Origin: Promethearchaeota archaeon
GTDB lineage: Archaea > Asgardarchaeota > Lokiarchaeia > Sigyniarchaeales > SOKP01
Length of the DNA: 64,000 nt
Assembly: GCA_030603385.1 (NCBI GenBank)
Contig: JAUVXW010000007.1
Span: forward strand, 1-64,000
Reading direction: 5' to 3'
Positions 9,877-41,838 of this stretch are shown one piece after another. The position numbers and the translations under genes were made by a program. The notes beneath the pieces are model-generated. The model was not told the origin of the DNA, did not search any database, and worked only from the letters and a program-made list of their open reading frames with translations. Numbering within the stretch: the stretch's first letter is position 1; each line of letters opens with the position of its first letter.

Positions 9877-10477
9877 ACTTTATCACCTCACTTCCTTTTA
9901 TTTTTTTAAATAATATTTTTTTATCTATTTTTTTCATTCTATCAAATAGGGCCTTCTTACTAATTTTAAGATATTTCATCGTAGTTTCAAGATCTTTATG
10001 TCTTAGAATTCCAGATACATTTTCCAATGCCATTCCATTGTTTAATAAATGTGTTGCTCGTGATCTCCGGAAACTATGGGTAGTTATAGGTTTTTTAATT
10101 TCTGTTAGTTCTACACATTTTTTCACAATTTTATAGGCCATAGGATAACTAAGTTGAGAAGATCGATTGGATTGAAATACAAAATCCTGAGTTTTAATCT
10201 TTTTATCATTACAAAAACGTTCAATTTCTCCATAAATATGTGGGGGTACTGGTTGAGTTTCCCAATTCCTCTTGTCTGTTTTTTGATCTCTCAGTAATAA
10301 ATAAGTATAATCATCTTCATTTCTATAATCTTCATATTTGCTATTCAAAGCTTCTGAAACACGTAAAGCACCATAATAACATACTCTCATTAATAAAAGG
10401 TTCCTAGAGGAGATTCCAGGCGTTTGCCATAATATTTCGATTTCTTTCTCTGAAAGCCATTCTTTTGAATATTTCAT
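9869..10477 (-). CDS. Tyrosine recombinase/integrase, catalytic domain only (202 aa)
   Basis: Catalytic residues present: GALRVSEAL (R), QKT (K), THSFRRSRATHLL (HxxR), LRHKDLETTMKY (H, Y). Confidence 0.95.
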   Translation of the reverse strand: MKYSKEWLSEKEIEILWQTPGISSRNLLLMRVCYYGALRVSEALNSKYEDYRNEDDYTYLLLRDQKTDKRNWETQPVPPHIYGEIERFCNDKKIKTQDFVFQSNRSSQLSYPMAYKIVKKCVELTEIKKPITTHSFRRSRATHLLNNGMALENVSGILRHKDLETTMKYLKISKKALFDRMKKIDKKILFKKIKGSEVIKYD

Positions 10478-11348: not shown

Positions 11349-14300
11349 ATGGGTTATATAAAGATTCAACATTATGTTTCTTTCACATTAAAAGAGGTGC
11401 AAAGTATGGAACTAGTTGAAAAATCTTCAAATATAGATGAGCTGATAGAGCACCATTGTCAGAAAAAGATTAGACTGCCTAAAATACAATTAAATTATTC
11501 AAATAAAGCGAAAGGAATAACCTGTTTTGCAAGTTTCTTTCTTTTCTTAATTGGTTTTATATTGTCTGGAAACGATATACAAAGTAAAATAATAATTACT
11601 GGAGGATATCTTTTCTTTTTTTATTTAAACTTACCTAGATTTTCTGACTCGGGAATAAAAAAAGATTATTATGCAGCATTACACGAATATGTAATTAAAA
11701 GAACCGATTTTCTTAATCTAGATTCCAAAAAAGCACTCATTTGCTTAACTTCTTATCTAATCTCTTCGATTTTTTCACTATTGTCTATTTATGTTTTTAA
11801 TAATATAGAAGCCTTTCTCATCTCCTTCTTCATTTTTCTTATTGTTTTAAAAGTATACATGCCAGATCTAACAAATTATAGAAAGAAAAATGTACGATTT
11901 CTTGCAATCATAATAATTTTTTCTTTAATTCTCTTTCCAATGTTAATAAGTTGGGAATCTCTCGGGTTAAAGCAAGAAGTATGTCCATCCCCTTCCTTTG
12001 GAATATATCCACAGCACCAAAGAAGAGAAAATAACGTAATTGATCTAATTAATTTAGATTATACAGAAAATCTTAATGAATTAACAGATATTACATTCAA
12101 TTCCTTGATCTCAATAAAATTTAAAACTTCTTGTTCCACAAACAAGATAATAACATTTCATGCAGATCTAATTCCCAGAAATGTATCGATATCTGGAGAA
12201 CTCAACTCAGAAGCAAAAGTATTGGAAAAAACACATTCATTTAGTTCAAAACAATTTAAGGGACCTTTCTCTGAGCGAGACCTTTATTTTAAATTAGATT
12301 TGTCAAGTACTCAAACACCTGTTTTGCCGGGAAAGTATCAACTAGATATATTTTATATTGTTCAAAAAGGATTTACAGTTGGAGAACACTCATCAGTTCA
12401 TTCATATGAAATTAACATTCAGAAGGAATATGTGTTCTTTATTGAAAAATATTCAGCCGATCCTGGAAAATCCACTCGAAAGGGAAGCATTTATACAATT
12501 GAGAATTTAGACTTACCTGGTTGGACAACAATTTTTGAGACAAGAATAGAAGACTCCTTGGGAAATCCCATCCCTAATGGAATTGTCTCATTATATACAA
12601 CAGATTATAAAGATGGGAATATAATTTTAAAAAAAACGTCAGACTATCAAGTAGGAGACGATGGATTCATCTATTATAAGGCAAACAGTAGATATTTTGG
12701 AGAATTAACAAGAGGAAAGCTAGTATTTGATGGTTCTCAGAGCTTGTATTATAAAACGACAACTCATTTGGAAAGTGCTGAGCTCTCGGAGGATAAATTT
12801 GTCCATTCATCTGATTATCCCACTAATGGAGATTTTCTTTACAATGGAACTCAATTCAAATTGGAAGAGGTAAATCAGTTTAAAACGAGAACTCATTTAT
12901 TATATTTCCATGACTTTAGTATAAAAGAATTACAGTGGGTTAAATCCCCAAATTATTGTTATTATACGGGAACTTCAGATTTCATTTACCTTAATACTAA
13001 AAAATCAACCGATACATATATTGAGAGCCCTATAATAACATATTTAGGCACAAAAGCGGAGTTAGCTTATCTTTCATACAGATATCAGCTATATAACTAT
13101 GAAAGTTTAAATGATGAGATTTGGGTTGATCTTCAATCTCAATTGTGGAGAGATGGGGTAATAGTGCACCAACAATTTGATTACAAGGGATTTTATAATG
13201 AAAAAGGTGGCAACTGGAAAACAATTGAGACTAATTTAACCAACTATTTTCAAGAGGGGGGTCAGCAATTTAAGATTAAGATTCTCGCCAATTTTACTGC
13301 CAGATCCCATCATATAAATGAAATATCAATTAGGTTTGATTATGCCAGGTTAGAGGTTTATCATCCTCCAGTATATTTTAGGGATTTTACGTTTCATAAT
13401 GGATTTAATGAATTCACATCTCCGATTACTGAAACTACTGAATCATTTTATTGGGATTTAAATAATACAGTATCAGAAGAACAATTTAATGCTATTATTG
13501 GCAATAATTTCTCTCTAGAAGCTATTCCAAACGGCTCCTCTCCAAATTCTTTTGGAATTCTTACTAAACTAAAAGAAAAAACTGAATTCTCGGAAAGTGA
13601 ATTTCTAATCACTAATCAAATCAATCTCGATAATTTGGAGTTTTTGAAATATGAAAATTTATCGAATTGTTACCTAGATCTTGATGCAAAATTAAACTTA
13701 TTCAGTTTTATAAATAAAAATATAGCGAAAAAATCAACGTCACTTTCTGGAGCTTTAGAGACCGAGATGTTAGTAATGACTGAATCTTTCTCTGATCCAG
13801 ATTTAGTAATTTCAAGTGAAATAATATATGATGATTTTGCTAATGATTATATTCTTAAGGAGTTGAATTTAAGAGAGACTTGGGACAAAGATTTTGGTGA
13901 ATTGTTTTATAATTTTGACACTTTAACAAATGAAATAGAAGTGCCAAATATTGATCAGTACCTTCAGCTCTCTGCTAAGGAGCAAGAGGATTTATTTATT
14001 CTGTTTAAAAACCTATATGAAGAGGGATATCACAAGATATATTTAGTATTTAAATTTAAAATCAACATTTTTAACAAGATCCAAGATGAATCATTAAATA
14101 ATATTAATGTTTGGTTCAATAGATTTCAATTATGTTACCGTTGGATGAATTTTTCTGGTTTTTTTAATCAGACATATTTACTTGAAAGAGATAAAGATCC
14201 ATTTATATTCTTCGAAAAACTAACAAGTGAGGCAAATCTCAACCTATTATCGGATTTTGGAATTGAAATTGAAGGACGCAATGATCTTATTTCTTTTTCC

Positions 14301-17300
14301 TCATTAAGCGATAATTATTTTGGTACCCTTGGAGTTTATGATTCTTTTGGGAAGTTCACTGTTGATGAAAACAATATTAAAGCAAGAACTGGAATTATTT
14401 CACCAAATTTATATTCAAATAATACTAACAATTATACTCTTCGAGCAATTATCGATTTCTATCCATTTTTAAAGTGTCAAGAGGATATACAACTTGAATC
14501 GATATTTCATAGTTTTAACTCCAATAAAATGAATCTGAACTTAGAAATCTTTAATCAATATGAGGAAAAGATTGCAACCAATTATGGAAATCCATATTTA
14601 ATGGTCAGAGATTTAGATGTCAATGATTTTGCTTCTATTACCAATAACAATGGTGAGAAATATTATTTTACTATAAAACCAATGAAACTCCATGTATATT
14701 TACACGATATTATTACATCAACTGATTATATCTATTTGAAACTTGTTTCTGAGTTTTCAGATAAATTTAATTCTACAATCACCTATGAACAGGGTGTTTT
14801 CTTAGATACTGTTAAACTAGAGTTTATACAAGAAGAAACCTATTTCGAAGAGGAATCATATTCCGAACCGATAAATAATCATAATAACGACTATTCGTCA
14901 GGAGCACCAATTTATTTCCAGGATATCCCGTCCTTTATAGAAAATATGTCCATTAACGACCATAATTTTGAAGAGATTGTGTTCTTCAATGATCATACAA
15001 ATTTAACCTTAGATTTGAAAAATAATGATAATGTAAGTTCTGTTAAAATTCATGCCATCAAAATTTTGGGGGATCCCGCATTCTATACATATATAGATCA
15101 AAATAAACAATGGTTTAATTTAATCATAAAAGGGACTTCAAGCTATCCTAACTCAAATTCACCTTATTTAACATCGGACAAACTTTCTTATTCTTTTTTC
15201 GATGGTTATGATCTTAATGGTACATTTAATTATGAGAATGTTATCCACTTAGATAATTATACAATTCCATTTAAGGATTTAAACATAATAGATATTGAAA
15301 GAATTTATACAAGTCAGGAAATTTCAATTCCGTTCTATTTCGATCCAATAGCCCAAGAATTGACAATAGATCGAGAATATGCTAGGTATCTTAATAGTTC
15401 TACTAATTTAATCTTAAAAGGTGTAAAATGTGATTTAGGTTGGAATAGTTCATTTTCTTTTGAAGGGGAAAAATGGGTATTAGAAGAGTTTAATGTGGTT
15501 AATTATTTATCTTCAGTTCCAGAATGGTTTGAGTGCCTTTATGGATTTGAAAATGATGAGTCTTCTGAGTATGTCCATTATAAACAAGTAGATCAATATA
15601 CCAAAGACATGTTTGAATTCTACTTCTCAATTAGTTATGATAATGGAAGTAAAAAAACCACACCAATTTATAATGCAAGATATGATAATGTAAAAGCAAC
15701 AGGGATATTTGGAAAAATTTTAACGAATTCCGAGGGTGAAACAAAAGTAAATTATCATATGTTGGGGGAGACAGGAAATTTCAGAAATATTATGTTTGGA
15801 ACTTCAAACCCAGAGCATAGAACACTTTATTTTACTCTTGGATATGAAATAATCAATGTTGGTGATAGTGAATATTATATTAGCTCACAATTTCCCTCCC
15901 CATTAAATAAAATTAGACAAATTGAGTTATACAATCAAACCAACTCTAAGATTGGGTCAATGAATTTAGATTATTCCTCTGAACCGATTCGTTATTTTTC
16001 ATTAGAATTAGACTCTAAGTACTTTAATGAGGGATTCAACTGGATTAAAGCTATTATAACAGATCAAGCAGATAATAATAAAATTATATATACTTCTATT
16101 TATGTCTACAAAGAGCTTAATTATTCTCTCTCACAGTCACTAGCTTTTGGAGATACTATTTATTATAATCAAGAAAGGAATTACACACAAGATCCTCACC
16201 AATTCTTTGGATTTTTGAATAATTGGGTTGATAATGGAAGAAAGAGCAATATTACCGTTGAGATTAGTTATTTTAACTATAATGAGCAAATTTGGATTCC
16301 CTTAGGGTCAACAGTAAGTTCGGATGGATCATTTACAGTAGATTGGCATGAAATTGATGAGAGTTACAGATCGCTTTTACCGTCTCAGCGAGGATATTTG
16401 CCGGTAAATTTGACATATTACGAAAGACCACCGGCTTACTTTTATGGAGATTATGGGAAATTTGATAGTTCTAATACCTTGTCACCTTTTTTAATTGATG
16501 AAACGGGGAAAATATATATTTATCACTTTAACCATTTTAAAGACAAGTGGATTATAAACAAAACAATAGGATTGGGTGTTTCACTCAATGATAATACAGT
16601 TTCTGCGCTAGATTTGAATGGAGACGAAAGAACTGATTTAGTTTTCTCAAGTAAAACGCAAGAAGATAATAGGATTCATTTTTACATTTATAATTCAGAA
16701 ACTAAGATATTTGATTTTAATCAGACAATAAATATCCAAAAAGATATTTCATACTCTCAAGCGTTAGCTAAACCTGTTATACGGGATTATTTATTTGATT
16801 TTACAGATGGAACAACCCCTGTCTTATATTTATGCATAAGTAACACATCAAATGACGTAAATTTCATCTTAAAGCTTTCATTTGACTTTTATTTAAACTT
16901 TGTTCAAGAATCTATCACCCAAATCCCGGCAAATTACCTGATCACTAAACTTTCATTAATTAAAGATCGACTATTTATTGGGGCTATATCACCTCAAAGA
17001 CAAGCAAAAGTTCAATCTTCAATCTTTACTCTTGATCCTAAACTTCTTATAAACAGTACAGAGATTTTTGAAGATTCTATTGAGGGAATTGTCGCTGAGA
17101 TTTCATATTTTAAGGCACAGGTGGGTGAAATGCTAGTTCTAGGTATTTCGAAAGATCAATACAATGAAGATGATATAATCTTGTACTATCTTTTTGATGA
17201 AGTAGAAAAATCTTGGAAACGACCAGCTTTAATATTTAATCCTAATTCTGACATTTTTTTTAATGATTCTCTTGATTTTCGCATTCGTGCAATAGTTACT

Positions 17301-32300: not shown

Positions 32301-35300
32301 TTTAGTTTAGAATTCAATACTATTACAATTCCTGAGGTGTTTCTGGATACAAATGGAAACACTATAAAAATGAGAGATGGAGATATTCTATTTTTAAAAT
32401 ATAAGGCGTTTTTGGAGGCTTCGATTGGTATCACTGTTGAGGATATGGTGCTTCAAAGGAAACCATACTTTGAAAATTATGAAACAAATAGATATGATAT
32501 TCCTATTGCAGAAATTTCATTACTGGGTGTAAATGTTGATGGAAATAATTATTCAATTGATGATGTTTTTGAAAATAGAGAGAAGTTAGTAGCTTGGGAG
32601 ACATCGTTAGATATAACGCCATTTGAATCTGAATTAGAAAATACCTATAAACAACAAGTATTTAATATTAGTTTTGCAGATATTAAGCCTGAGTTCAAGA
32701 AATTAGACGAAAAAAATATTGAGAATTGCTATGTCACCGACATCATGATTACATCGAACGACCCGAGATATGAGATCGTTGTAGATTCATTTTTTATTTT
32801 TGAATTTGACGAGAATGCTAACATCTATGATTCTGATATTTTTGAAATCTATCCAAATAACCACATGGAAACTTTCTATTTTGGAAATTATTCGGATATT
32901 TATAGTAATTCAGTAATCCTTAATACCAGTGAATTCTTACCAATTTATCAAGGGATTGAATCTGTAGACGAGACCTATTATTTTGAGGTATTTGATAATT
33001 TAGATAATTGGTACTATTTTGGCGAGCATCTAATCGGAGAAGAGATATCTTCTGGGGTTTATAATATAACTTGGAATCTTCAATACTGCCAAGAATATTA
33101 TTATGCATATATCAATCAATATGAAGATCTTTCTGAACTCTATGACTATTATAATCCGCATATTGACAAACTTAGGTATCTCTATTTAACTTGGGCTGAT
33201 AAAAACGCTTGGAACGAATGGCAGACCATCGAGCAAGCAAATGTAAATATCAGCACCTTAGATATCACATTCGAATGGTGTGATGAAACGCCAGAAGAAT
33301 ATGAATCGGTTGTATATAACCAAACTTTAGACGAATTTGAAGCACGACATATTGCAGTTGAGCCCATATACCCATATGATTCAAGTCGCAAAACCGATAT
33401 TTTTGAGTTGTCGCAAGACTATAGCAACGCCCAAGACCTGGATATTTACAAGATCACGGGATACTTTTTCAACGAAACTGTGAAAAATTTTGATCCAAGT
33501 ATATCAAATATTCAACTTGATAAAAAATCGATTGAAATTTCCGCCCCTAGTGGCTTTAATTTAGATAATTTTGAGAAAATTATCGTATATCTGAACTTTA
33601 CTGAGGGTGCCTATTCAGATTATACACAATTTAGACTCCTTCAAAATGCTATTGATAACCATCCAGAAGCACCATCATGGACTAAAAATGACTCGATATA
33701 TATTGATTTTGAGTATACCGATATTGATTATTTCCTCCTCCTTGAAGATTATGCGGTTGGTTCTGAAGATTCAATGTTTGAATATTTTGAATATGTTAGA
33801 AATGACAAATTCGTTTCATTCGATTATTCATTCAGTATGCTAGAAGAAATTGATAACTTTGATTCATTTACAGAAGTTAATGATCCTTCTTCTGTTTTAG
33901 AGCTATACGATTTTGATTTAGATGCCAATCATGAACTTGTTATCCAAAAAGATGATGTCTCAAATGATGGAGTGTTTGATTCATTTAAATATGGGGCTTT
34001 AAATCCAGCAGGAGAGATTTCTTTCCATACACTTGTTCAAGAGGCTAGTTCAGTACAAGTCTATAAAGACCAAAGCGTAGATTACAGCGTAAGTGAAGGT
34101 TATCAAATAAACTGGAAGGATATATGGCGCAAATACTATATTTTTGCCCGACGCTATCTTACTACATACACTACAGTTACTAATACAATAAGTTCAGCGG
34201 GTAAATTAATTCAAAAGGATCTTGATGCTGATGGGATCCCCGATAAGGAGATTTTCTTTAGAACAAGCTTTTCAATTACCGAAGTTATAACCGTAACTAA
34301 TGAAACGACTCACTTACATTTCAAACCTACATGTCATAACCCTGGTGGCAAGAGGCATGACGGTTATCTCACTGAGTTGCGAAACTCGACTACAATATAT
34401 ACAGATCAATCTGTATCATTTATGTTTAAGGATTTTGAAGGAGAAGAAGCCGTTTCTATACGTCTTTATGAAGATATATTCCCAAACGAGTTATCCGAGG
34501 CGTATAATTTAGAAAATAACCTCTATTCAATTACTAATGATCAAAATGACGAAGATCCCGATAATGACATAACAATTGATTCACCCGCACTTGAGGAGCT
34601 TCTTTCGCTTTCACATGATACTGATCCAGTTTCGGCTATCTTTGATCAAGTATCTATATATGAAAATGATGAATTCGATACAGAAAACATATTAGCAGTC
34701 AATAAGTCGTTAACAGCTTCAGGTATGTATAATGCAATTACAGGATTAGGTTCACAAGGTAGTGAACATGAGTTCTCGGTTAGCGTTATCGAGGTTAAAC
34801 CAAACGAAGGGGTATATTATGATATCAATACTCGATTCGGGCCTCAAAAAATTGAAGGTTCATATTATTACTACGATGAGAACAATGATGGACGGTACAG
34901 TACTATATTTGTTACAGATTCAAATGATAATATCATTGGTATTGGTTTCGATAATGATAAAAATCTAATTTTCGAGCCTAACAGCAGACAATTCGTAGAA
35001 AAACATATAATTAAGGGTGGGGCATTTGGTTGGAAGAAATATGACTACCTTACCGGTGAAGAATACTATGTAGTTGAGAATTATATTAAAAATAAGCTTG
35101 TGTTCTTCCAAGATGAAGATCGATATGAGGGATATTTCTTAGAACCGACTCTTAGTGATTCGCTATTTGACATCTGGAAAATGCAATATAATGCAGGATC
35201 CAGCAAGTTAATAAAGGAACAAATGTCAATTACCTCCCATCAATTCCTTTCATCAATAACACCCAGTAAGATAATTGGAGATATCGCTTGGCAAATAAAA

Positions 35301-38300
35301 GCCCAAACAATCTCGGCTGTAGTTGGAGGAGTTCTTGCTGGAATTGTTTCAATTTTTACAGCAGGTGCTGGAGCTAAGATTGCATATTATGTTGGCCATT
35401 TCATTACTTATGCAATTTGCAATGCAATCCATTCATATATACAAGAAAGAGACCAAAACTATTACATTCGCTCTCAGACTTTTCACAATGTCAATTATGA
35501 AGGCGAAGTGAAATTATCTGATAAACTAATGAAAGATCGCTATTTTGGCGATATGATGACTGATGCCTTGTTAGATAGTGGCAGTGGAGTATATGCCCCT
35601 GTAAGGGCTGAAACCGATAAACACGCGTATTCTGGTGAAGTTGTCCTTGCCCCTCGCGGCAAATCAAAGACTTCTCTAAGTATAACGCTTGATGTTTCAT
35701 TTAAGCATTTAGCTTTGGATTATTCTCAACAAACTCGTGGTTATTTCACATATTCTGATCTTGACGATCCTCGATTTATTTCGTTCTATCACGAGGGTAA
35801 TGAGGTTTTCATAATTCCGAGAAACGATAAGAGTAAGTATATGAGTAATTCAATTATGTATTTAGAAGATACGGTCCACAACACGACTATAGCGAATGAT
35901 GATACCCATTATGATAGCATTACTCCTTATATGGTTTATGGCGATGGCACGTTTGTTCCAGTACTTCAATTTGCCGATTCGGAAGGAGCTATCCCAGTTC
36001 CCGAATTCTACGACGAGTATCCAATTTTCTTATCCCCAGAACATTACGAGCTTATAAGCGAAGAATATCATTCAATCTATAAGATCTACGATGGTATTTC
36101 CAATACCATCCAGCTTATACCCGATTATAGTACTCATACTTTACATTCTGATATCGTATCATTTGACGCATATCTCTCTGATGGACAAGGTACTGAAATT
36201 CCCATTGGAAATTATAAGAACTCTGATAGTTATGAGTCCTTTACCTTTAACAGCACTTCAGGGAAAGTAGTTCTATCACCCCAACAAGTAAATCATTTAG
36301 ATGATTATTTAGACAACTATGAAGGTGATGCATATATTGTCCTTGAGTTTTTCATTGAGAAATATAGATCAGTTGATGATTTAAGAGATCTTACCGCCGA
36401 AGAAGTGGAGAACATTGCAACCATGCAATCTGCTCACGCTAATATCTTAGAATATATGTATCAGCATACCATAGCCACGAAGACTCAGCAAAAGTTAAGC
36501 GAAGCAGCATACACGGTACTTGTGACCGTTATAAGCACACTACCTTTTGCAATAGCTGGTGCTTTTAGTAAAGGATTGATACAATTACCTAAAATGGTTA
36601 TATTCGAGACGTTTGAAGAATTGTTCATTGATCCATGGATCGAATCGTATGTTTCTGGTTATGCAGAAGAACATGGATGGAGCACATTAGGAAAGTCACT
36701 TGCCGTAAGCTTTGCTGAAAGTAGCAGAGAGACATTTGGAAGCACGATATCCAGAGGACTTAAACAAGTTTTCTCGATAAATCAACAAGCTTCACAGAGT
36801 ATTAATTCAGAATCACAATCGCAAGCTCAATCAGTACAGTCGGCAAGTCAGCTAAAAGCAGATCGTAAATCAGCAACACTTCAATCGGTTTCTCAAATAG
36901 CATTATCGACAATCATACTCTTTGCGGGCTTTATATCACCAATTGCTGTCATATTTGGCACTTATGCCACTCAAGTTGGAATGGGTGTTATGTCGACAGT
37001 TAAAGAAGTTCGATACAAGCATTTGCTTAATAAGATTATTGACTCATATTCAGAAGCCAATGTACAGGATCTTTTAAGCATACTTGCCCCATCAAAAGTA
37101 TCTGATGCACAGACCAACTTAGTTCATAACGAATTAAGCCCTATAATAAGTAAAGAGCATAGTTTAATTACTGATGAGCAGAAGAATAAAGGTAAATCTG
37201 AAAATTTACTACAAAAAACTTTTGCGTGGGTAAAACAACATAAGAAACAAATTGCAATGTATGCCGGAGTTGCCATTACTGGATTTCTTGCCTCTCAAGG
37301 TATTAATGCTCTTTTTTCTGATTCTATGTTTGGAAGTCTTGCTGGTAGTGTTACCAGCATGGGACTCGGTACAATTGGGATGGTTAAACAAGAGTCTACT
37401 TCTGATAAAAATACCAAAAAGGTTAAGATCCAACAGACTCTAGACGGTAAATCCTTACTTCCTTCTAAAGTAGATAGAATAATTTCAAGAGAATTTGGAG
37501 GAAAAAAACATTATACTCAGGAATATATGAAAAATCTTTGGAAATTAGGTAAAACTGATGGGAAGGATGGTAATTACATTTTTGGTATGATTTATCAGTG
37601 GACTCATGAGAAAAGCGGTAAAGTTTATGTATATCCAGGAAGAACGGAAAGGCGTAGAGGTACTCCAGATTATCGACCATATTCATCCATTTCTGTAAGG
37701 TTTGATGAGGAAATTAGGACCGCTATTGAGAGCAAAATAGGAGAATTACAGAGAAGGAAATGTAAAATGTATTACGATATGCGACTAGTATTTGATAGTG
37801 CTGGTAAAGGTCAAAAAGGTATTAATGCAATTATAAAGAATTTTAAGCTCGAAATTGTGGAATTGCAAGTAATGTCAGAAACTTATGAGAAAGATAAAAT
37901 AATAATTGAACAGCTTGAAGATTATTGGTCGGATGTGGCAATTTCGAAGGGCTATGAATTATACACTAAAGCAGGTGGTAGAATTGGAGCCCATGTTTCA
38001 GAGCTAAAGGGAGCACACGGTAGAAAAGCTGCTCACAAAAAAGTTAGGGATATGATACGACACGGATTTTCTAAAAAAGATATTGCTCAATATTTCGAGA
38101 TGCCTTGGAGTCCCATAACTCACGGTTCAATGGCTCTTAATTATTTACTTCGTGAGGCTTTAGACGGTAAATCTTACACTAAGGTAAGAAACGAAGAGAT
38201 TAGTTCAGAAATTCTAGACCTTATAGATAATGGAGTCCTCACAATTCCAGATCTTGCTTCATATTTTAAGGGTATGACTCCCAAAGATATTTTTAATTTT

Positions 38301-38702
38301 TTACGAACCAGACATTTTCCACAAGGAAACTTATATCTTAATGGATTGATTAGTTCTGCAATCTTTAAGCTAAAGCAAGATAAAGTTTTCGACAAATATG
38401 ATCCTGTATTCACATATCACGATATATTAAATGAATTAGGTATAAGAACTGGAGATCTTTTGCTTACTGAATATATGAAAAGAGAAATGAAGACTATAAC
38501 TAAAATCACAGAAGATGATCTAATCTCTTGGTTAAAACCTTATGCTAGAATGCTAATTAAGAATTCCAATAGTGCTTCTGAATTGTTAGACTTACTAAAT
38601 TGGGACGAAGGTTTGACAGAAGATTATAGGGTCCATAAGTTGTTTGGGATGGATTTTAAACAAGCTAAGATGACTTTTACTAGTGGGGTTCTGAATAAAT
38701 AA
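11349..38702 (+). CDS. Giant (~9,100 aa) membrane-anchored surface protein with C-terminal GIY-YIG-like nuclease/HTH region; candidate polymorphic toxin. Likely true start is ATG 11406
   Basis: Uninterrupted 27.35-kb ORF; GAGGTG SD before 11406; about five hydrophobic segments in the first ~200 aa; many N-x-S/T sequons; DxDxDG loops; Gly/Ala-rich hydrophobic helices at ~35.3-37.4 kb; GMIY...VYPGRT...R...E...GYE motif at ~37.6-38.0 kb. Confidence 0.85.
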   Translation: MGYIKIQHYVSFTLKEVQSMELVEKSSNIDELIEHHCQKKIRLPKIQLNYSNKAKGITCFASFFLFLIGFILSGNDIQSKIIITGGYLFFFYLNLPRFSDSGIKKDYYAALHEYVIKRTDFLNLDSKKALICLTSYLISSIFSLLSIYVFNNIEAFLISFFIFLIVLKVYMPDLTNYRKKNVRFLAIIIIFSLILFPMLISWESLGLKQEVCPSPSFGIYPQHQRRENNVIDLINLDYTENLNELTDITFNSLISIKFKTSCSTNKIITFHADLIPRNVSISGELNSEAKVLEKTHSFSSKQFKGPFSERDLYFKLDLSSTQTPVLPGKYQLDIFYIVQKGFTVGEHSSVHSYEINIQKEYVFFIEKYSADPGKSTRKGSIYTIENLDLPGWTTIFETRIEDSLGNPIPNGIVSLYTTDYKDGNIILKKTSDYQVGDDGFIYYKANSRYFGELTRGKLVFDGSQSLYYKTTTHLESAELSEDKFVHSSDYPTNGDFLYNGTQFKLEEVNQFKTRTHLLYFHDFSIKELQWVKSPNYCYYTGTSDFIYLNTKKSTDTYIESPIITYLGTKAELAYLSYRYQLYNYESLNDEIWVDLQSQLWRDGVIVHQQFDYKGFYNEKGGNWKTIETNLTNYFQEGGQQFKIKILANFTARSHHINEISIRFDYARLEVYHPPVYFRDFTFHNGFNEFTSPITETTESFYWDLNNTVSEEQFNAIIGNNFSLEAIPNGSSPNSFGILTKLKEKTEFSESEFLITNQINLDNLEFLKYENLSNCYLDLDAKLNLFSFINKNIAKKSTSLSGALETEMLVMTESFSDPDLVISSEIIYDDFANDYILKELNLRETWDKDFGELFYNFDTLTNEIEVPNIDQYLQLSAKEQEDLFILFKNLYEEGYHKIYLVFKFKINIFNKIQDESLNNINVWFNRFQLCYRWMNFSGFFNQTYLLERDKDPFIFFEKLTSEANLNLLSDFGIEIEGRNDLISFSSLSDNYFGTLGVYDSFGKFTVDENNIKARTGIISPNLYSNNTNNYTLRAIIDFYPFLKCQEDIQLESIFHSFNSNKMNLNLEIFNQYEEKIATNYGNPYLMVRDLDVNDFASITNNNGEKYYFTIKPMKLHVYLHDIITSTDYIYLKLVSEFSDKFNSTITYEQGVFLDTVKLEFIQEETYFEEESYSEPINNHNNDYSSGAPIYFQDIPSFIENMSINDHNFEEIVFFNDHTNLTLDLKNNDNVSSVKIHAIKILGDPAFYTYIDQNKQWFNLIIKGTSSYPNSNSPYLTSDKLSYSFFDGYDLNGTFNYENVIHLDNYTIPFKDLNIIDIERIYTSQEISIPFYFDPIAQELTIDREYARYLNSSTNLILKGVKCDLGWNSSFSFEGEKWVLEEFNVVNYLSSVPEWFECLYGFENDESSEYVHYKQVDQYTKDMFEFYFSISYDNGSKKTTPIYNARYDNVKATGIFGKILTNSEGETKVNYHMLGETGNFRNIMFGTSNPEHRTLYFTLGYEIINVGDSEYYISSQFPSPLNKIRQIELYNQTNSKIGSMNLDYSSEPIRYFSLELDSKYFNEGFNWIKAIITDQADNNKIIYTSIYVYKELNYSLSQSLAFGDTIYYNQERNYTQDPHQFFGFLNNWVDNGRKSNITVEISYFNYNEQIWIPLGSTVSSDGSFTVDWHEIDESYRSLLPSQRGYLPVNLTYYERPPAYFYGDYGKFDSSNTLSPFLIDETGKIYIYHFNHFKDKWIINKTIGLGVSLNDNTVSALDLNGDERTDLVFSSKTQEDNRIHFYIYNSETKIFDFNQTINIQKDISYSQALAKPVIRDYLFDFTDGTTPVLYLCISNTSNDVNFILKLSFDFYLNFVQESITQIPANYLITKLSLIKDRLFIGAISPQRQAKVQSSIFTLDPKLLINSTEIFEDSIEGIVAEISYFKAQVGEMLVLGISKDQYNEDDIILYYLFDEVEKSWKRPALIFNPNSDIFFNDSLDFRIRAIVTSKEEHLESLYIASNHGVFRTIITTEIFEEDIIPIYYSVDTVRISDLLAYKEENEDYIQLPLTNYPITSIINVYKVEKCYYDEIYIFNRIERLDENGYSISNDRRSLMCYPERGNWTLNTLLNSDLYYEIRYYYEATLKEASGYISSRIKKEEHSHSTDIIASTSEMKAEDLRFQLKNIYDNSWTLNYGTNYEDWNYQTIPVTSGLPFIIRYGSLEGSGITSVSQLSTLTEYNNKRINYGTITTTSDMVSTSTELSQFETGQDFKDPNNYQYPYSNSYIDSVWVEDLDLSSSIDFRTDMGDYTELLGDMGNIADDILPSTVANTVAYQPEIINVAVSVSGGGTPTVKDDQDQDVTTNNQRIQILKNKGNYLQVYESNNADLGLYIDVMFQLDDNEDYKSIKCILVSTAFAQIIVPTGNYDPGGYVDYVKNMKVSLIDNENIEIGTFHTKDDIFENIFEASNLYVIDNDGLPNFDDDIYRKFKTYNFGKSIYSDPAYIEQGYYKVDNIPERANFLFPNKYNIHKITKGVFSRGANNQFRFYYYYHDDALYYEPESTYEEEHIYDYNYLRLDTSDTTNFVNDGKLKLRFSMAGYTGDLSKILRNELIVRHFNCTVFSDKDNLNNQNWDFSGDGYTSQDTDGGLILNSGSISLDDTNCPTKTYIDSNSDIKYRAVFRLQDTGNIVTFSVGSASYRYDTLDPNLPDKLSLQNGINTIEITYDAFNSWNLFINGENGTDGTGELEGWFNPNEFEPSGDFYPTISVGDNDEINLIEIKNQVFEKIDANYNGWSTDYNDSEELVVGGKGETYKDLTYSDISLQREIIYSFNNGLSNIKAVFEDLRLWSDLDYHTNIDEVSQQQYDTDFPLFISNIYNDDEYSGTFYTEPSNTFPISGIMPFPTDLDLNFPNFAPSMPDNIYILKVEPHFYFKYDYGTDAKLIVRLSNGLYIDAPLDNPYIGNQILQIDYLYDYILSDLQVYSSSNFQAEAFNYGFTYTDDLELSTTTIKIENCYGNVDIYMMQYKVYTTPKPNTFRDLLYNQEFNIPNNAVTEFYILDKYSNKQLISNNVNFKSAGSYIKALLNNSGNINYNPENNLENIIYKNSFGQNALSFNIKANINYPDFADDSETIRAFNKINDFKIVPKLKPKEGNGLSNPDPDDPTPYPYGSSWWHQQELVVPLPFNLTFNEFSSQDFNDLSELVFDVEFNLSLLGFSSFAWRPNLKIYDYSTKEWISYVENITSGGKILWNWKNDYITNNTYDRIQLYHEPNRYFQIFNGNSHNCEFSFRFTREAYPNLDQLLQSSGNSVSITLMCEAYIIPGVYKDGGWNIEFENSTHPFNRKEISSKIILKNSSIRRFRKTEIYKKNIFYSNNFHNGKPFDKPSNSYIDLKTLLGGNSFDDIAGICTVYGIKQKPLIIVPLDSNQWDFNRTLGRLQLSNEVLLNFDYFNFTMELWSDFLSLGGNKFEPNKSLFENITLIEKIIGVRNDGSIQWFTKNYENGLFSYTQEEPYYIHLNQDDSIDHITFASHINLSEFIRIRGVVQDIGNYRSSLYKEKISLLHTDHLRFPFDFSSIDNLEFQDLRLNCAFESGFISDESINNIFSDSYYSVYIDFYKTVDEYWDSNPENMSYIGRYNVLNNLLFNSSDFRYHSFTLSGIDLMNLSLDTSRLFGSFQQNNTLILKITSEFRGSHQGKWLEGDFAFEVKDASLKIHMEDGNYSELEELVASSAFIQNFPIPDLSSIEAISFQINYSEIPQIATSAFIIGNNNGIYPLQQYEIFKGPSVIQIQFFNPELEKWIIVDSVIYDLGDENLYTFLYLIDKHSTDLTQFDCLKDNKSTYQLRYRLVIDKIFTDKACFVEVKFRMEDVKLQIYYMPESNTNELNPKLFFSADITDLLTVGDYPMQNYIEDLFISLNFNYGISLSNQAKDYFNQYAFYTETIKLFIFDENNNRRLIGNPNSIINLKKIAKDSLYEYIKYRNGKYYIDFLLDYKWQLKQFQSYQCNSIFNVNAYIKLIKFSIQAQVASVKKELISPNDIGENSVLFTGDITSDGIVDIGFSGGFLEKKENNERIYLKYSFSYVFDSNYNNEFDNTDPQITFAEFIFDLRFTCNESSTYLFTDMGLPFKKLILGNEKVLNLTTNGRVDKASLYLSSPVQKIGEFSRVNGTKNKFVYNWTNIRTLLEPYYTTGDEIEIIINVFDSSSKINDTLRYTCLLDFEPPEVKVKIGDGATNYSSKNCATPWTRYIVDIYDNLENILNHSHYYYSEILRNYFQVKVFEISNNLVCKTGFIPLDRTIGNLNDLHIPIKNYENPDEYYYVVEFKTVDAAGNVGINSSYLGDKCKLFVSNELYIEFNDILIDVNELFQNSNDFLNFTLIDANQNNVINASLFAKSGNYYLKNPVWNESTQTYYIEFENILDLVIHSENIFDQEIISNYYLDNNLNWEVNNDDCYAFVKHASQKDPLTLSYFLQKERTVLLNISNLETYKLIDFIRPNEVYCYVWNNVTKAYDIKHTFAQEDYTVSKNGSISWDTEIDFESMNLRGNQIIFTYFGSNYSNIIKDNRKNGMFFTILVPSLYSTHCTIDTLQIEFRDFEDNTFNYLMDSLDFDIYFQNATKYKKVIPGLGEMLQIPIYIDFSRLNSPDLQAQFNISHIHTITFGVFDAHIWPGDPVSFNQEYGYINLNYPYQVFGISEISFYDILTDGSNLTLQINDLNFKYSIDEYPITVNKFDAHITGLEILNDKTKLLYDQLNLIKFADILDVYFQINNDSELFPIYEMTTPLMGLVDILSNTIIGLSLMEWDLSIKKYHSRFTIAEDVMQDGLENYRLKLMFIPTDIENSINSTETLNIDLIPQTISKICLWNNREIIINDDYVFDLKTKFTLHYEEELQLKGYILDNSTYYREREIIPFKATDPLGDQKVQIYDIDLHGLIGESHFIDVNNFKVEFIDRASFNSIEILFEVVNGIVVVQSDIIENAWIEYFDYYHPQYPNKFVLKVKWNEKTPNILPFDTDLLLSYKVMQGKKIIPVTFEDSDDVLTPVDFWKYDYDTFKWVNSEIFTEVLNIKQTKENSSLFTGVDPNQIIRILGSSIGSGIITLVNVWQRVGTTFIVVDDSNYEYELIKVNGIDSLEVKYLGVNSVDLLVEYTFIPLIKLKHYAIDDLLADSYIKTWVNNHFFSIPMEVGVDYDIVGENKNQLIFYTFYTSVTPKFNLNNGWFIVYYGYLTEEINLVKNLILEFLDYDGFWKPIAKIPLTSTGDFDHRFYIGNGGLQIPLNEETIMRLTYLPLNLTSYCNQNSEVNYNFNCVYNTSHSVNELFTLFVEGKTSKINYIPTEFSKSFDRWAIIPERKYTTTTNPYESLHEGEEYTYLEFHRTITDNYEFTFQLTDGKGDFLANQLIWCEIGWKPKAGLNYKLVDWEDDYGQYIDSEALGTVWLKDEGEKMCYGPGILDYEYPISRMFTRPETWEFIDSETDTISEYSSYAWDYRISDSNGLVTFNFTFDDDYIRDHHKIFDNSLFNSGSVTFDSLDDYRLYIRVFHAPVVDINHMAFENSSSLVCSKGNNVFDMSRTSELHDYDISQTMFYSGSYAEGLISLYPEDIMLGVPNLLIYQLGSELDDIFSFNIEVAEANVIPDTEIMTINKLGKNFETDKLIPEYDNNSYLIEGMPIVATITDFSGNSPFAEGNVEFFEYVDEAGKAKLNISDYYMQQLSPGVYKVNIYAIPRTYTKSMYRFITLEVRPENWLKMGEPTMTLDLLNWYDSGWGGASFGSDYCFYEDIYPRLTGYLAANHSEEGLEDYVKFQLYAKLRDIDSTTDWDEVEWIELGDEDIYLSSLVYDGLYYFEYPLGFDGDMLIGKEIILNITADCTYNQTGMSAENRKQQLNILNLTLATSTIRRDAEVLRSYSDSDIHKVWIGDFSQYGVERYFEYVDTKDIYGIDAEDILLNLIGYVEESISIVEVKAIQNYREIILEENIDYDFEPNGYEIDIESSTLLDNHSDLVISYAIKVDANKVLEFTFSESSGFTHSSLILGTENNTIKLEKENYLGKFYSTFNETYRLDSSGSTYLSKSFTGITSDDFKIININSSNPYSIDILDDRILIDFDSMRNEDVAIEYGIATYQLDRGYQQFGMTLGNAVRKLSKFHSTHNILVFSDDIVNTVNLLTIPDDPQNPLESGDSKLLIPISKNNKTSISFTNLGLLYDSVLRGNFYLDDCILLGDIHDLKSVLATFTFTTEDGESYFDYVSIDPSTDNNKFDFEIDLQPIFCVKGYTTYDIEIDFLSYGDNKKFLQYILFEKFELTVDDRIIQTVDKPMLNKRSELDVAQTINTAHYAQIFTSRLDEAYNVPEDAWLTITIEGFDEYGELVKLYQNDQKKLAFEHVDNNEFYFQSLKSHDNRLVNSLGFHLNAYDLEIPKYIEGEINLYAGKGTHNDIDDESWMYWSTTEDFQFYPNEYNFTSFEFTGFTDRHFEVSLDLTHGGEFSDIINNKEWWRIKPFGITVQTEAGERYIDRNFFCSWQHDTSYPNKPIYTFSLLRDYYEYIGILSNTEVVVTYYYQKESLSYFTAYDEILYGNDYTFIIRNSQGSVISDIENIHSIEGNNITFTDKIKIFLEIGETFTIEYEFRTKKLLDTKHLLIEIQPWEMKFYNSFYPFSGGSIIAPLYYNLSANYQYQLALNYRLQEKDILTFSINLTSKDIQNDMVAYDFGYNNPIVDYDNTPVIIAYFYNEDNEKILIPDDCLHCTFNSIIIKMIKSKFALTEEDTINISIFPELHNKYQLFHNLIVDLVNDNIVLTNWTVFQDPQNNLIPNYESPYFIFEVDPYETTNKGKVKEIYAILNETNYLTYYLTEDLNDPINGWKYFDTLIMKLGFLNPEVLDYLEVSFYYENNGKQLIGSVNVTIDMIDTESGAVYIRLPESTDFNKFTIQNGAQIVFRPVFRTPSEFQGFYYQDGYPTIQLVEWNSNDVKDGFLEVELDSKIISENQSVYVFNDLMENMYEATEVNVETEEHEYDGSTEKFSLEFNTITIPEVFLDTNGNTIKMRDGDILFLKYKAFLEASIGITVEDMVLQRKPYFENYETNRYDIPIAEISLLGVNVDGNNYSIDDVFENREKLVAWETSLDITPFESELENTYKQQVFNISFADIKPEFKKLDEKNIENCYVTDIMITSNDPRYEIVVDSFFIFEFDENANIYDSDIFEIYPNNHMETFYFGNYSDIYSNSVILNTSEFLPIYQGIESVDETYYFEVFDNLDNWYYFGEHLIGEEISSGVYNITWNLQYCQEYYYAYINQYEDLSELYDYYNPHIDKLRYLYLTWADKNAWNEWQTIEQANVNISTLDITFEWCDETPEEYESVVYNQTLDEFEARHIAVEPIYPYDSSRKTDIFELSQDYSNAQDLDIYKITGYFFNETVKNFDPSISNIQLDKKSIEISAPSGFNLDNFEKIIVYLNFTEGAYSDYTQFRLLQNAIDNHPEAPSWTKNDSIYIDFEYTDIDYFLLLEDYAVGSEDSMFEYFEYVRNDKFVSFDYSFSMLEEIDNFDSFTEVNDPSSVLELYDFDLDANHELVIQKDDVSNDGVFDSFKYGALNPAGEISFHTLVQEASSVQVYKDQSVDYSVSEGYQINWKDIWRKYYIFARRYLTTYTTVTNTISSAGKLIQKDLDADGIPDKEIFFRTSFSITEVITVTNETTHLHFKPTCHNPGGKRHDGYLTELRNSTTIYTDQSVSFMFKDFEGEEAVSIRLYEDIFPNELSEAYNLENNLYSITNDQNDEDPDNDITIDSPALEELLSLSHDTDPVSAIFDQVSIYENDEFDTENILAVNKSLTASGMYNAITGLGSQGSEHEFSVSVIEVKPNEGVYYDINTRFGPQKIEGSYYYYDENNDGRYSTIFVTDSNDNIIGIGFDNDKNLIFEPNSRQFVEKHIIKGGAFGWKKYDYLTGEEYYVVENYIKNKLVFFQDEDRYEGYFLEPTLSDSLFDIWKMQYNAGSSKLIKEQMSITSHQFLSSITPSKIIGDIAWQIKAQTISAVVGGVLAGIVSIFTAGAGAKIAYYVGHFITYAICNAIHSYIQERDQNYYIRSQTFHNVNYEGEVKLSDKLMKDRYFGDMMTDALLDSGSGVYAPVRAETDKHAYSGEVVLAPRGKSKTSLSITLDVSFKHLALDYSQQTRGYFTYSDLDDPRFISFYHEGNEVFIIPRNDKSKYMSNSIMYLEDTVHNTTIANDDTHYDSITPYMVYGDGTFVPVLQFADSEGAIPVPEFYDEYPIFLSPEHYELISEEYHSIYKIYDGISNTIQLIPDYSTHTLHSDIVSFDAYLSDGQGTEIPIGNYKNSDSYESFTFNSTSGKVVLSPQQVNHLDDYLDNYEGDAYIVLEFFIEKYRSVDDLRDLTAEEVENIATMQSAHANILEYMYQHTIATKTQQKLSEAAYTVLVTVISTLPFAIAGAFSKGLIQLPKMVIFETFEELFIDPWIESYVSGYAEEHGWSTLGKSLAVSFAESSRETFGSTISRGLKQVFSINQQASQSINSESQSQAQSVQSASQLKADRKSATLQSVSQIALSTIILFAGFISPIAVIFGTYATQVGMGVMSTVKEVRYKHLLNKIIDSYSEANVQDLLSILAPSKVSDAQTNLVHNELSPIISKEHSLITDEQKNKGKSENLLQKTFAWVKQHKKQIAMYAGVAITGFLASQGINALFSDSMFGSLAGSVTSMGLGTIGMVKQESTSDKNTKKVKIQQTLDGKSLLPSKVDRIISREFGGKKHYTQEYMKNLWKLGKTDGKDGNYIFGMIYQWTHEKSGKVYVYPGRTERRRGTPDYRPYSSISVRFDEEIRTAIESKIGELQRRKCKMYYDMRLVFDSAGKGQKGINAIIKNFKLEIVELQVMSETYEKDKIIIEQLEDYWSDVAISKGYELYTKAGGRIGAHVSELKGAHGRKAAHKKVRDMIRHGFSKKDIAQYFEMPWSPITHGSMALNYLLREALDGKSYTKVRNEEISSEILDLIDNGVLTIPDLASYFKGMTPKDIFNFLRTRHFPQGNLYLNGLISSAIFKLKQDKVFDKYDPVFTYHDILNELGIRTGDLLLTEYMKREMKTITKITEDDLISWLKPYARMLIKNSNSASELLDLLNWDEGLTEDYRVHKLFGMDFKQAKMTFTSGVLNK

Positions 38703-38807
38703 TCAATAAATCCCCTCTTATATTATGTTATATAAAACTTGCTTACTGTCAAGAGATTTAAATAATAATGATGATACAATCTTAATAGGAATACGGTAAT
38801 AAATATT

Positions 38808-39668
38808 ATGGCAAGGAGCGATGTAGGTATACTAGAAGATGACGAAGAGGCTGATGTAGCAGGATTTATGTTAGAAGCTTGTGGAATAGACTCTCCCGAT
38901 TTTTATCATAATAAAAGAATTTTAACTAGGGAGAATTTTGAAAAAAATTATAAATTCTTCGTCAAAATGGCAGAAAACCGTGGCTCGAGAAGAGCCTCAT
39001 ACTTTGTAATTGGTTATTTTGCCCTAATAACTGGGGGAAAAATAACTGAAGAACTTCGAAAAAAAATATTAGAGATAGCGAAATGGGAACACGAGGAGGG
39101 ATATTGGCAAGATAAGGAGTTTGCTCTCATGAGAAAGATTTACCTCGAAGACTTTCGAGAGAAAATTCGTATTCATAAAGCCGGAACAAAGCTACATCCC
39201 GCAATCTTTAAGTATAGCGGGAAGGACATGTCTGAATCAAGAGTCCTTATTGGTGTTAATAATATACTGAGTCTTTATGAAATTAATGACATAAAACATG
39301 TGAATTTAGATGGGTGGAATTTAACTTCTATTCCACATGAAATTTTTGAGCTTCAAAATCTTAAGTCATTAAGTTTAGAGTTTAATCAAATATCAGACAT
39401 TGATGATGAGATAACAAACTTAACAAAATTAAAGCATCTTTTTTTAGATTATAATCAACTTAAGTCAATTCCTGAGTCATTTGGAAAATTAGCATCACTT
39501 AAAAGCTTAAGTATCATACATAATAATGTAAATAGGTTACCAATATCATTGAAGAATCTAAAACACTTAAAGCATATTTATGTAAGAGGAACAGGAATAA
39601 ACCAAGCACCAAAGTTCCTTAAAGGCTCTAAGCTTGAACCTCTTAACGAGACAATTTACCTTAAATAA
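38808..39668 (+). CDS. N-terminal helical domain plus leucine-rich repeats; candidate immunity protein
   Basis: LRR units LKSLSLEFNQISDI, LKHLFLDYNQLKSIPESFGKL, LKSLSIIHNNVNRLPISL; acidic N-terminus (GILEDDEEADV) loosely DUF4259-like. Confidence 0.8.
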   Translation: MARSDVGILEDDEEADVAGFMLEACGIDSPDFYHNKRILTRENFEKNYKFFVKMAENRGSRRASYFVIGYFALITGGKITEELRKKILEIAKWEHEEGYWQDKEFALMRKIYLEDFREKIRIHKAGTKLHPAIFKYSGKDMSESRVLIGVNNILSLYEINDIKHVNLDGWNLTSIPHEIFELQNLKSLSLEFNQISDIDDEITNLTKLKHLFLDYNQLKSIPESFGKLASLKSLSIIHNNVNRLPISLKNLKHLKHIYVRGTGINQAPKFLKGSKLEPLNETIYLK

Positions 39669-40034: not shown

Positions 40035-40877
40035 ATGAAAAAAATGAAAAATCTAAAAAAAATCACATATATTATTGTTTCATTAATTCTTCTCCAATTT
40101 TTATTTATCTTCTCAGCTCCAACAGTAAGAGCAGACACAAGTGTTCCTGACAATTTCAATCAAAACTTAGATCTAAATAGAATATATATCTATAATGTAA
40201 CTGCATTTAATACTACAAAACCTCTGGAATGGGTAGATGTGGATTGGATGGCACCCACAAAAGGATTTGTGAATGTAACACCTGGAGGACAGATGAAGAT
40301 AAATCTTACTGGTTTTTACGAAAAAGATCCCAACGATTTCTTTAACGTCTTTGAAAGTCCAATGCCCTATATGAATATCGAGTTTTTAGAAAATAGGTCA
40401 GGTATATTATTTACAAATACTACACTATATAATGTTTCAAATGGAGAAGCAGCTCAAAATTTACTTCTTGGTTATAATAGTTTTAAATCAGGATTTCTAA
40501 TTCCAATTTCTGATTTCAACAATTTGACGCAACAAGCGTACGCACAGGATGAGCCACCTTTCATGAATGCAACAGTTTCTGTCATAGAAACGTCAAAGAC
40601 GATTTCTTTTGATTTTAAACAAAAAACTTTCTTACAACAAAAAACCAATTGTATCTACGATAAGGCTTCTGGATTGCTTATTTATACGAATACTAGTTTT
40701 GGGAATTATACTCTTGAGATGACTTTAATTAATCTTCCAAGTTTTCCTTCTGATTCGTTCTCAATACCATCATTCCATTTATTAATAGTAATAACGATCC
40801 TAGGTACAACAATATTAATCAATATCTGCCTAAAAAAAATAAAACTTACTAAGAAGTATTCTAAATTTAGAAATTAA
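40035..40877 (+). CDS. Secreted/surface glycoprotein with N-terminal signal and C-terminal anchor (PGF/Loki-CTERM-like)
   Basis: Basic-hydrophobic N-terminus ending VRA-D; several sequons; IPSF + hydrophobic helix + Lys-rich tail. Confidence 0.75.
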   Translation: MKKMKNLKKITYIIVSLILLQFLFIFSAPTVRADTSVPDNFNQNLDLNRIYIYNVTAFNTTKPLEWVDVDWMAPTKGFVNVTPGGQMKINLTGFYEKDPNDFFNVFESPMPYMNIEFLENRSGILFTNTTLYNVSNGEAAQNLLLGYNSFKSGFLIPISDFNNLTQQAYAQDEPPFMNATVSVIETSKTISFDFKQKTFLQQKTNCIYDKASGLLIYTNTSFGNYTLEMTLINLPSFPSDSFSIPSFHLLIVITILGTTILINICLKKIKLTKKYSKFRN

Positions 40878-40913
40878 AATTTATTTTTTTATTTATTATA
40901 TCTAAAAAATACA

Positions 40914-41339: not shown

Positions 41340-41363
41340 AAATACAAAGAATATTAGAAGAAA

Positions 41364-41798: not shown

Positions 41799-41838
41799 TT
41801 TTAACTCCTCTAATATAATTATAATGATTTTTAAGAAT

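Follow-up and report, generated by a model that had tools for sequence, protein, structure and literature searches.

The 64,000-nt stretch of DNA analysed here (hereafter the window; positions 1-64,000 of the forward strand of contig JAUVXW010000007.1, assembly GCA_030603385.1) comes from a Promethearchaeota archaeon (GTDB lineage Archaea; Asgardarchaeota; Lokiarchaeia; Sigyniarchaeales; SOKP01). It encodes a giant open reading frame (ORF), P0001, whose C-terminal tail stands behind a conserved membrane module, shows the fold of a GIY-YIG nuclease in its predicted structure, and is followed by a small gene, P0002, which goes with this type of tail. In our judgement the locus stands an even chance of being an Asgard counterpart of the polymorphic toxin-immunity systems, built on a scaffold of its own. 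We recognise the signature of such systems because the junction is conserved, the tails are variable and enzymatic, the neighbouring gene is tail-specific, orphan and decaying tails occur, and the neighbour is a protein of protein-binding repeats without an export signal. The features on which the argument rests are the following:

11349-38702, + strand: giant ORF P0001, 9,117 amino acids (aa), with no stop across 27.4 kb of DNA of about 30% G+C
11511-11969, + strand: N-terminal membrane anchor of about five hydrophobic helices, aa 55-207 (Kyte-Doolittle scan)
11970-35300, + strand: acidic, aromatic-rich body, aa 208-7984, presumed extracellular (composition)
35301-36503, + strand: hydrophobic helix (aa 7985-8009) and conserved 375-aa domain (aa 8010-8385)
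36399-37385, + strand: conserved pre-tail membrane module, common to about 25 other giant ORFs in relatives
37386-38699, + strand: variable C-terminal tail, aa 8680-9117, delimited by the drop in identity to protein P0003
37575-37946, + strand: GIY-YIG nuclease-fold core, aa 8743-8866, with Y8749, G8764, R8765, R8784 and E8857
38013-38681, + strand: helical region with DNA-binding modules of helix-turn-helix (HTH) type, aa 8889-9111 (VIA-align)
38808-39668, + strand: P0002, 286 aa, candidate cognate inhibitor (immunity protein), starting 105 bp past the giant stop

The junction and the tail

The junction is most clearly seen when P0001 is compared with P0003, a metagenomic protein of 5,938 aa which shares collinear blocks with it at 50-62% identity. 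In 40-residue windows, identity between the two proteins runs at 52-82% as far as aa ~8630; from aa 8680 on it is only 12-28%, and nothing significant is found between the two tails by BLAST. Homologous proteins thus vary C-terminally at a sharp junction, as do the members of polymorphic toxin systems. The reading first made from the sequence alone (the sequence-only reading) had proposed to test whether the sequence varies past the motif GLGTIGMV. It does differ there among otherwise similar giants; the exchange of an unrelated cassette is not what is seen in P0003, whose tail, with canonical GIY-YIG motifs and HTH-like repeats, is no unrelated cassette and instead a very diverged one of the same build. 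As judged from the sequences, this pair would reflect either extreme divergence or an exchange inside one tail class.

The module that precedes the junction has a fixed order of parts: the motif EEVxxIATMQ (aa 8351), a helix (aa 8386-8408), a loop with the motifs DPWIE and AESxRET, a second helix (aa 8514-8541), a linker rich in Lys and Arg, and finally a weak hydrophobic hairpin which closes with GLGTIGMV (aa 8672-8679). In front of it, and partly overlapping it, the region of aa 7985-8385 is 54% identical to P0003 and is also found in the fragments P0005, P0006 and P0008; for aa 8010-8385 no family match was obtained, and the feature search of the ESM Atlas returned no usable match.

Matches were found in 21 of 100 related genomes, with about 25 large ORFs whose open frames range from 931 to 20,619 aa. 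The alignment of these giants with the window is confined to the first ~300-350 aa of the tail region, and their last ~460-880 aa cannot be related to the window tail by BLAST, being either unrelated or very diverged. Many of them have a small co-directional gene of their own 37-106 bp past the stop, and these genes belong to differing families; several encode leucine-rich repeat (LRR) proteins with different N-terminal domains. Weak Pfam leads in the other tails are LAGLIDADG_3 (locus L023) and a treble-clef zinc finger (L026 and L027).

Some of these giants deserve a word of their own. The source genome has a second one of 14,833 aa (G000:C3, L055), which ends at locus position 7351 on the minus strand and is followed by the gene of a DUF2695 protein; a search with the last 350 aa of its tail (E <= 0.001) did not bring up an orphan copy of that tail. 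The largest, of 20,619 aa (G024:C13, L056), is followed 64 bp later by a gene for an Arf-family small GTPase. The same pre-tail module is present in giants of 12,779 aa (G038:C95, L057) and 12,880 aa (L049, a GenBank metagenome-assembled genome, MAG). At L040:6137-8056 (- strand; G048:C71) a ubiquitin-family domain (Pfam E 8.7e-7), without Gly-Gly at its end, stands right before a canonical GIY-YIG core and HTH-like modules.

The tail of P0001 itself is rich in Lys and Arg (10.4% K, 5.7% R) and carries the motifs GMIY (aa 8746), YVYPGRTE (aa 8760), VRF (aa 8783) and LEDYW (aa 8856). A search with aa 8695-9117 against 1.84 billion representative proteins gave 43 clusters of relatives, which are mostly the C-terminal ends of large fragmentary proteins with the same membrane module in front. 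We modelled the tail from aa 8695 on with AlphaFold2, using a 27-row alignment (A1), and obtained a pLDDT of 80.9. Residues 49-172 of the model form a beta-beta-alpha...beta-alpha core, and the top match of this core among 48,161 PDB representatives (VIA-align wide) is the catalytic domain of I-TevI (1ln0_A), with a moderate Z of 6.4, a root-mean-square deviation of 2.7 A and 88 of 92 residues superposed. Two further endonucleases, T4 EndoII and PD-T4-3, match this N-terminal part as well (both at Z 4.8). In the ESM Atlas, phage GIY-YIG clusters, some of them with sigma70_r4 or NUMOD3 modules, match the tail (one GIY-YIG cluster at TM 0.76 by target). The match surfaced only by way of VIA-align wide and the Atlas; Foldseek with the whole tail against PDB gave nothing at E <= 0.001, the helical half dominating its list. 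Residues 195-417 of the model match HTH domains of the AraC-type tandem, sigma-70 region 4, TetR and LuxR kinds (Z 4.4-6.0), and AraC-type clusters match the tail in the Atlas as well.

The model thus supports a GIY-YIG fold for the tail: a three-stranded, helix-flanked sheet that can be superposed on solved domains, as expected of a member of the GIY-YIG (URI) superfamily, and the motif noticed in the sequence-only reading lies, in the model, in a fold of nuclease type. The residues that define the family's catalytic site are conserved among the relatives (Y 16/17 rows, G 18/19, R 19/19, E 24/25, N 23/25). The P0001 copy keeps Y8749, G8764, R8784 and E8857, and has Thr8873 in place of Asn and an insertion in its YIG motif. 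On the strength of sequence and model, catalysis by the tail is likely. The Pfam GIY-YIG model (PF01541) stays below its gathering score in the window tail (E 0.32), where it hits a different stretch from the core, and is likewise sub-threshold in the tails of P0003 (E 0.009, 16.7 bits) and L040 (22.5 bits, with the cut-off at 22.6).

The structural matches also bring to mind the GIY-YIG homing endonucleases (I-TevI, phage Seg), in which a catalytic core is likewise followed by helical or HTH modules. The tail could be a selfish gene of this Seg/I-TevI type which, together with its partner, was repeatedly inserted at the 3' ends of giant genes, or fused to them in frame, with no benefit to the host; we hold this to be quite improbable. 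It would account for the best structural matches being I-TevI and phage proteins of GIY-YIG type with sigma70_r4 or NUMOD3, for the tail ORFs that stand free in G018 and G037, and for the weak LAGLIDADG_3 match in another giant's tail. It does not account for the conserved LRR partner, which is not known to travel with homing endonucleases, nor for a junction that lies at the same point of the conserved membrane module in ~25 paralogues, most of whose tails have no recognised nuclease. Unlike in homing endonucleases, the domain here forms the end of a membrane protein of 9,117 aa and is coupled to an LRR gene, with sequence similarity below the Pfam threshold; no intron or intein context and no PHROG match were found.

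The neighbouring gene and its linkage to the tail

P0002 had already been noticed in the sequence-only reading as a short co-oriented gene 105 bp downstream of the giant ORF. It encodes a helical N-terminal domain (aa 1-135) and an LRR domain (aa 145-286; Pfam LRR_8, E 7e-16), the model has a pLDDT of 90.4, and LRR proteins match its fold at Z 18.7. Neither a signal peptide nor a membrane helix was seen by eye. As with the Imm-LRR immunity proteins, an LRR protein is thus encoded beside a candidate toxin tip. Its homologues form 91 clusters from Asgard MAGs; the names given to their sources (Lokiarchaeota, Thorarchaeota and Promethearchaeota) support the Asgard origin that had been proposed for this DNA. 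An assignment of the N-terminal domain to DUF4259 was considered and dropped: it was a weak Atlas lead (score 0.90, 28% of the cluster members) that Pfam scans did not reproduce with the 26 family members. Three runs of complex prediction for the tail and P0002 gave 0.54, 0.18 and 0.28 against a mark of 0.32, which counts neither way on binding.

The neighbouring gene was also predicted to vary with the type of tail, and it does so. In a table of 30 loci, a full-length P0002 homologue lies within 110 bp in all seven loci with this tail type and in none of the 23 with other tails, a pattern to be read qualitatively, since the seven belong to related genomes and one tail class, are not independent, and include one that was found through P0002. 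Scans of the 100 related genomes agree with this adjacency: 9 of 14 strong matches to the N-terminal domain of P0002 lie within ~1 kb of a tail or a tail remnant. Six P0002 homologues were looked up on long contigs; one abuts the 3' end of a 12,880-aa giant with this tail, and two are immediately preceded by tail remnants (111 and 134 aa). Identity to the window rises jointly in tail and neighbour (26%/40%, 32%/46%, 46%/59% and 51%/63%). An adjoining gene that co-varies with the tail type, as in polymorphic toxin systems, is hence found here as qualitative support.

The pair of tail and neighbour is also found away from giant genes, and in various states of decay. A stand-alone tail ORF of 443 aa (51% identical) adjoins a P0002 homologue (63%) in G018:C32, at a site syntenic with the window, and another stand-alone tail (32%) is accompanied by a P0002 homologue (46%) in G037:C6. 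In G031:C14 a large ORF bears the tail (26%) beside a P0002 homologue (40%), and tail fragments occur with P0002 homologues (47-49%) in G018:C19 and G039:C45. Remnants of the tail, 98-134 aa long, stand beside intact P0002 homologues in G043, L052 and L053; in G043:C24 (98 aa; homologue 59% identical) and L053 (134 aa) this is again at the syntenic site. Only the tail fragment of G016:C11, among the loci found via the tail, has no P0002 homologue nearby. Orphaned or displaced cassettes of tip and immunity type, which belong to the picture of polymorphic toxin systems, are accordingly present in G018 and G037 and as remnants elsewhere. G018 has four strong copies of the P0002 N-terminal domain (C32, C19, C69 and C70) and a fifth, weak match; three copies adjoin tails, one full, one of 292 aa without a start and one a 118-aa remnant, which looks like an accumulation of orphan modules.

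The body of the giant and the genomic setting

P0001 is a single uninterrupted frame of 9,117 aa with its parts in the order proposed from the sequence, and a frame of such length cannot stay open by chance at ~30% G+C. Its body of ~7,780 aa is net acidic in each 300-aa window (7.9% D, 7.1% E) and contains 15% F+Y+W. Self-BLAST finds no internal repeats in it, which is unusual among giant surface proteins. No match was obtained with Pfam, NCBIfam or PDB sequences apart from one sub-threshold Pfam match to FG-GAP_3, and nothing with PHROGs or PADLOC. From P0003 the body differs by the insertion or deletion of large blocks (e.g., aa 502-2128). Two descriptions of the body had to be toned down: it is only modestly enriched in sequons (113, as compared with 93 +/- 8 in shuffles), and what had been called a DxDxDG-rich block comes down to some five DxDxD/N motifs, loosely clustered at aa 7521-7868. 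Gly/Ala-rich hydrophobic helices lie at aa 7985-8009, 8386-8408, 8514-8541 and 8635-8679; to call them translocation helices would be to argue by analogy. Among public sequencing runs no RNA run is listed, and the DNA runs contain at most 0.21 of the sampled words.

The genes around the giant gene and P0002 that can be named are these:

2911-4038, + strand: ParB_N-domain protein (Pfam ParB_N E 3e-13; PHROG ParB-like), a mobile-element-like context
6595-7398: PAPS-reductase-like gene, upstream of the giant gene
9869-10477, - strand: tyrosine integrase (Pfam Phage_integrase E 6e-25; PHROG integrase), ~870 bp upstream of the giant gene
40035-43257: flank after P0002, with two genes without family, a Roadblock/LC7 gene and an aSelB-like GTPase, syntenic in other species

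The integrase, ParB_N and PAPS-reductase-like genes upstream suggest that the giant gene is carried on a mobile element. The boundary of that element is not visible because the contig begins 11 kb upstream. Between positions 1824 and 8497 a 393-aa gene overlaps the end of the ParB_N gene, and besides the PAPS-reductase-like protein there are several small ORFs without assignment; a gene set of this kind, closing with a tyrosine integrase on the opposite strand, is typical of integrated elements.

On the other side, the flank at 40035-43257 is kept in order and at 60-80% identity in L042, L048 and L053, all of which lack the giant gene. The genomes G018 and G043 and that of L053 have the syntenic flank with only a tail or tail remnant and a P0002 homologue. 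The pair of tail and neighbour is therefore old at this site, as these giant-less loci attest. The giant body was either lost repeatedly or brought to the window's site by a mobile element, and a contig break prevents a decision: L053 has a ribosomal operon upstream, and in the source genome these flanking chromosomal genes (AHSA1, ribosomal operon) lie on contig C51, 3.1 kb from its end, which is compatible with an insertion here, although the contigs cannot be joined.

Within the flank, the genes at 40035-40877 and 40914-41339 (both + strand) have no family, and their order after the P0002 homologue is kept in G018, G043 and L053 (60-66% identity). The Roadblock/LC7-domain protein (41364-41798, - strand) adjoins the GTPase, a pairing kept in three other species at 80% identity. 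The aSelB-like elongation-factor GTPase (41839-43257, - strand) and a tRNA-Sec (anticodon TCA; 48216-48308, + strand) are less than 7 kb apart, and SepSecS is encoded at the syntenic locus L053 as well. The region has the look of a neighbourhood of selenocysteine genes. This tRNA-Sec, at 48216, is the sole tRNA of the window and lies 9.5 kb from the giant gene.

Interpretation and comparison with known systems

If the locus is a polymorphic toxin-immunity system, it may work as follows. The N-terminal helices would anchor the giant protein and the acidic body of ~7,800 aa would be displayed. The conserved membrane-associated module would serve as a fixed junction for exchangeable C-terminal effectors, and the effector of P0001 would combine a GIY-YIG endonuclease with several HTH modules for DNA binding. 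P0002, with its helical domain and LRRs, would stay in the cytoplasm as the cognate inhibitor, protecting the producer and also those cells that retain the inhibitor gene only. We infer that the tail would cut DNA, that P0002 would bind and block it, and that the system would act between cells, in antagonism or kin discrimination.

Both components have precedents, since among bacterial polymorphic toxin systems there are toxins of the URI (GIY-YIG) fold on record, as well as immunity proteins of the Imm-LRR kind, and classical systems of this sort are reported to be rare in archaea (Zhang et al. 2012, PMC3482391). With CdiA, Rhs and MafB (PMC3482391) the locus shares a very long exported or anchored protein, a sharp junction, variable C-terminal domains, a small linked downstream gene for each tail type, orphan modules, and a GIY-YIG (URI) tip with an LRR neighbour. 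Unlike those toxins, the giant has a non-repetitive body and no known trafficking, repeat or release domains, its anchor consists of N-terminal membrane helices in a single-membrane organism, and its tail of ~440 aa has several HTH modules. Membership in the CdiA/CdiB, Rhs/YD or MafB families was rejected, Pfam and NCBIfam giving none of the defining domains (TPS, FHA, YD, Rhs core), and the likeness is one of gene logic only. Of the toxin-immunity system proposed in the sequence-only reading, what stands is the genetic architecture (variable tail, nuclease fold, linked neighbour); Pfam and NCBIfam show no homology to CdiA, Rhs or MafB.

Two further comparisons concern archaea. The aloposons (giant genes Otus and Ephialtes of Heimdallarchaeum, an Asgard archaeon) have tandem genes for 3,000-6,000 aa, preceded by a cluster with a ParA/MinD-like ATPase and closely followed by a tRNA integration site, and many unrelated giant genes across Asgard archaea are noted in the same work, which describes no variable-tail or immunity logic for aloposons (Wu et al. 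2022, PMC8813620). Our locus resembles them as an Asgard giant gene in a mobile-element-like context. It was not classed with them, for it has a single giant of 9,117 aa, no adjacent tRNA, ParB_N and an integrase upstream, and no ParA was found. VARTIG of the Thermococcales combines a large surface protein of hypervariable C-terminal region with variable downstream genes in an organisation resembling that of polymorphic toxins (Makarova et al. 2021, PMC8416519). It differs from our locus in its lineage and in its variable part, an Ig domain that has no enzymatic tip, and homology between the two was not detected; here too the likeness is in logic only.

Several observations weigh against a toxin-immunity system. 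Across the whole 9,117 aa, Pfam and NCBIfam gave no match to trafficking, repeat, pre-toxin or releasing-peptidase domains, and specifically none to TPS, FHA, YD/Rhs, PAAR, VgrG, LXG/WXG or HINT. The tail, at ~440 aa, is far above the typical size of a toxin tip, and the HTH modules in it are less suited to a blunt toxin than to a regulator or an enzyme acting at specific sites. The seven linked loci, as said, are not independent; 5 of the 14 strong matches to the P0002 N-terminal domain have no tail nearby, and the same holds for three of the six homologues from long contigs. The P0002 homologues are moreover fairly conserved (50-93%). P0002 could thus have a function of its own, because some homologues stand without a tail and the family is conserved to this degree. 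In a topology scan of 25 tails (hydropathy, positive-inside rule), the second hydrophobic stretch is 30-53 aa long, a possible hairpin, with positive charge on either flank. P0007 and P0008 have no hairpin between the K/R-rich linker and the tail, a hint that the tail may face the cytoplasm of the producer itself. Lastly, the P0001 copy departs from the family consensus by Thr8873 in place of Asn and by the insertion YVYPG in its YIG motif.

The latter departures, together with the HTH modules that occupy half of the tail, would suit a DNA-binding tail without catalysis, i.e., a regulator tethered to the membrane, which a signal from the body would release or reposition, with a degenerate GIY-YIG domain and P0002 as cofactor. 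This strikes us as very improbable indeed: nearly all relatives retain the catalytic Tyr, Arg and Glu, as does the P0001 copy, and neither decayed tails beside intact P0002 genes nor the unrelated tails of paralogues fit a conserved signalling output.

The topology, in turn, bears on a self-acting, membrane-tethered nuclease, which we consider unlikely, if less so. The giant would here sense or bind, at the cell surface, viruses or foreign cells for example, the cytoplasmic tail would cut incoming or own DNA when triggered, in defence or abortive infection, and the LRR protein would be a regulator. The variants without hairpin, which put the tail on the side of the K/R-rich linker, argue for this, as do the lack of an export signal in P0002 and of any export or release domain among the matches of the giant; defence genes, too, typically have diversifying tails and decayed copies. 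Yet the giant ORF matches none of 5,027 defence-system models, stand-alone modules of tail and neighbour persist without the sensor part, and a body of ~7,800 aa would be costly for a sensor.

We return to the toxin-immunity reading with a bolder form of it, which we put forward tentatively, as a doubtful possibility. Asgard archaea of the Lokiarchaeia type may have a cell-to-cell effector delivery of their own that owes nothing to bacterial secretion, consisting of N-anchored giants of 5,000-20,000 aa, exchangeable enzymatic tails that stand behind the conserved membrane module, and a cognate cytoplasmic inhibitor for each, the tail entering the neighbour's cytoplasm by membrane contact or fusion mediated by the body. 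If this were true, the giants would serve to discriminate kin in the very lineage that stands closest to the eukaryotes.

We found no description of this family in the literature searched. What is new is the logic of polymorphic toxins on an Asgard-specific scaffold without known domains: variable tails with partners are seen in a whole family that comprises the largest genes of these genomes. The conserved junction module is, moreover, a search key for new effector domains. If the tails act as toxins, a part of the 'giant gene' dark matter of Asgard archaea would receive a function, a modest pair (a 440-aa tail and a 286-aa partner) could be assayed without cultivating the organism, and there would be a handle on conflict or self/non-self recognition in those prokaryotes that are most closely related to eukaryotes.

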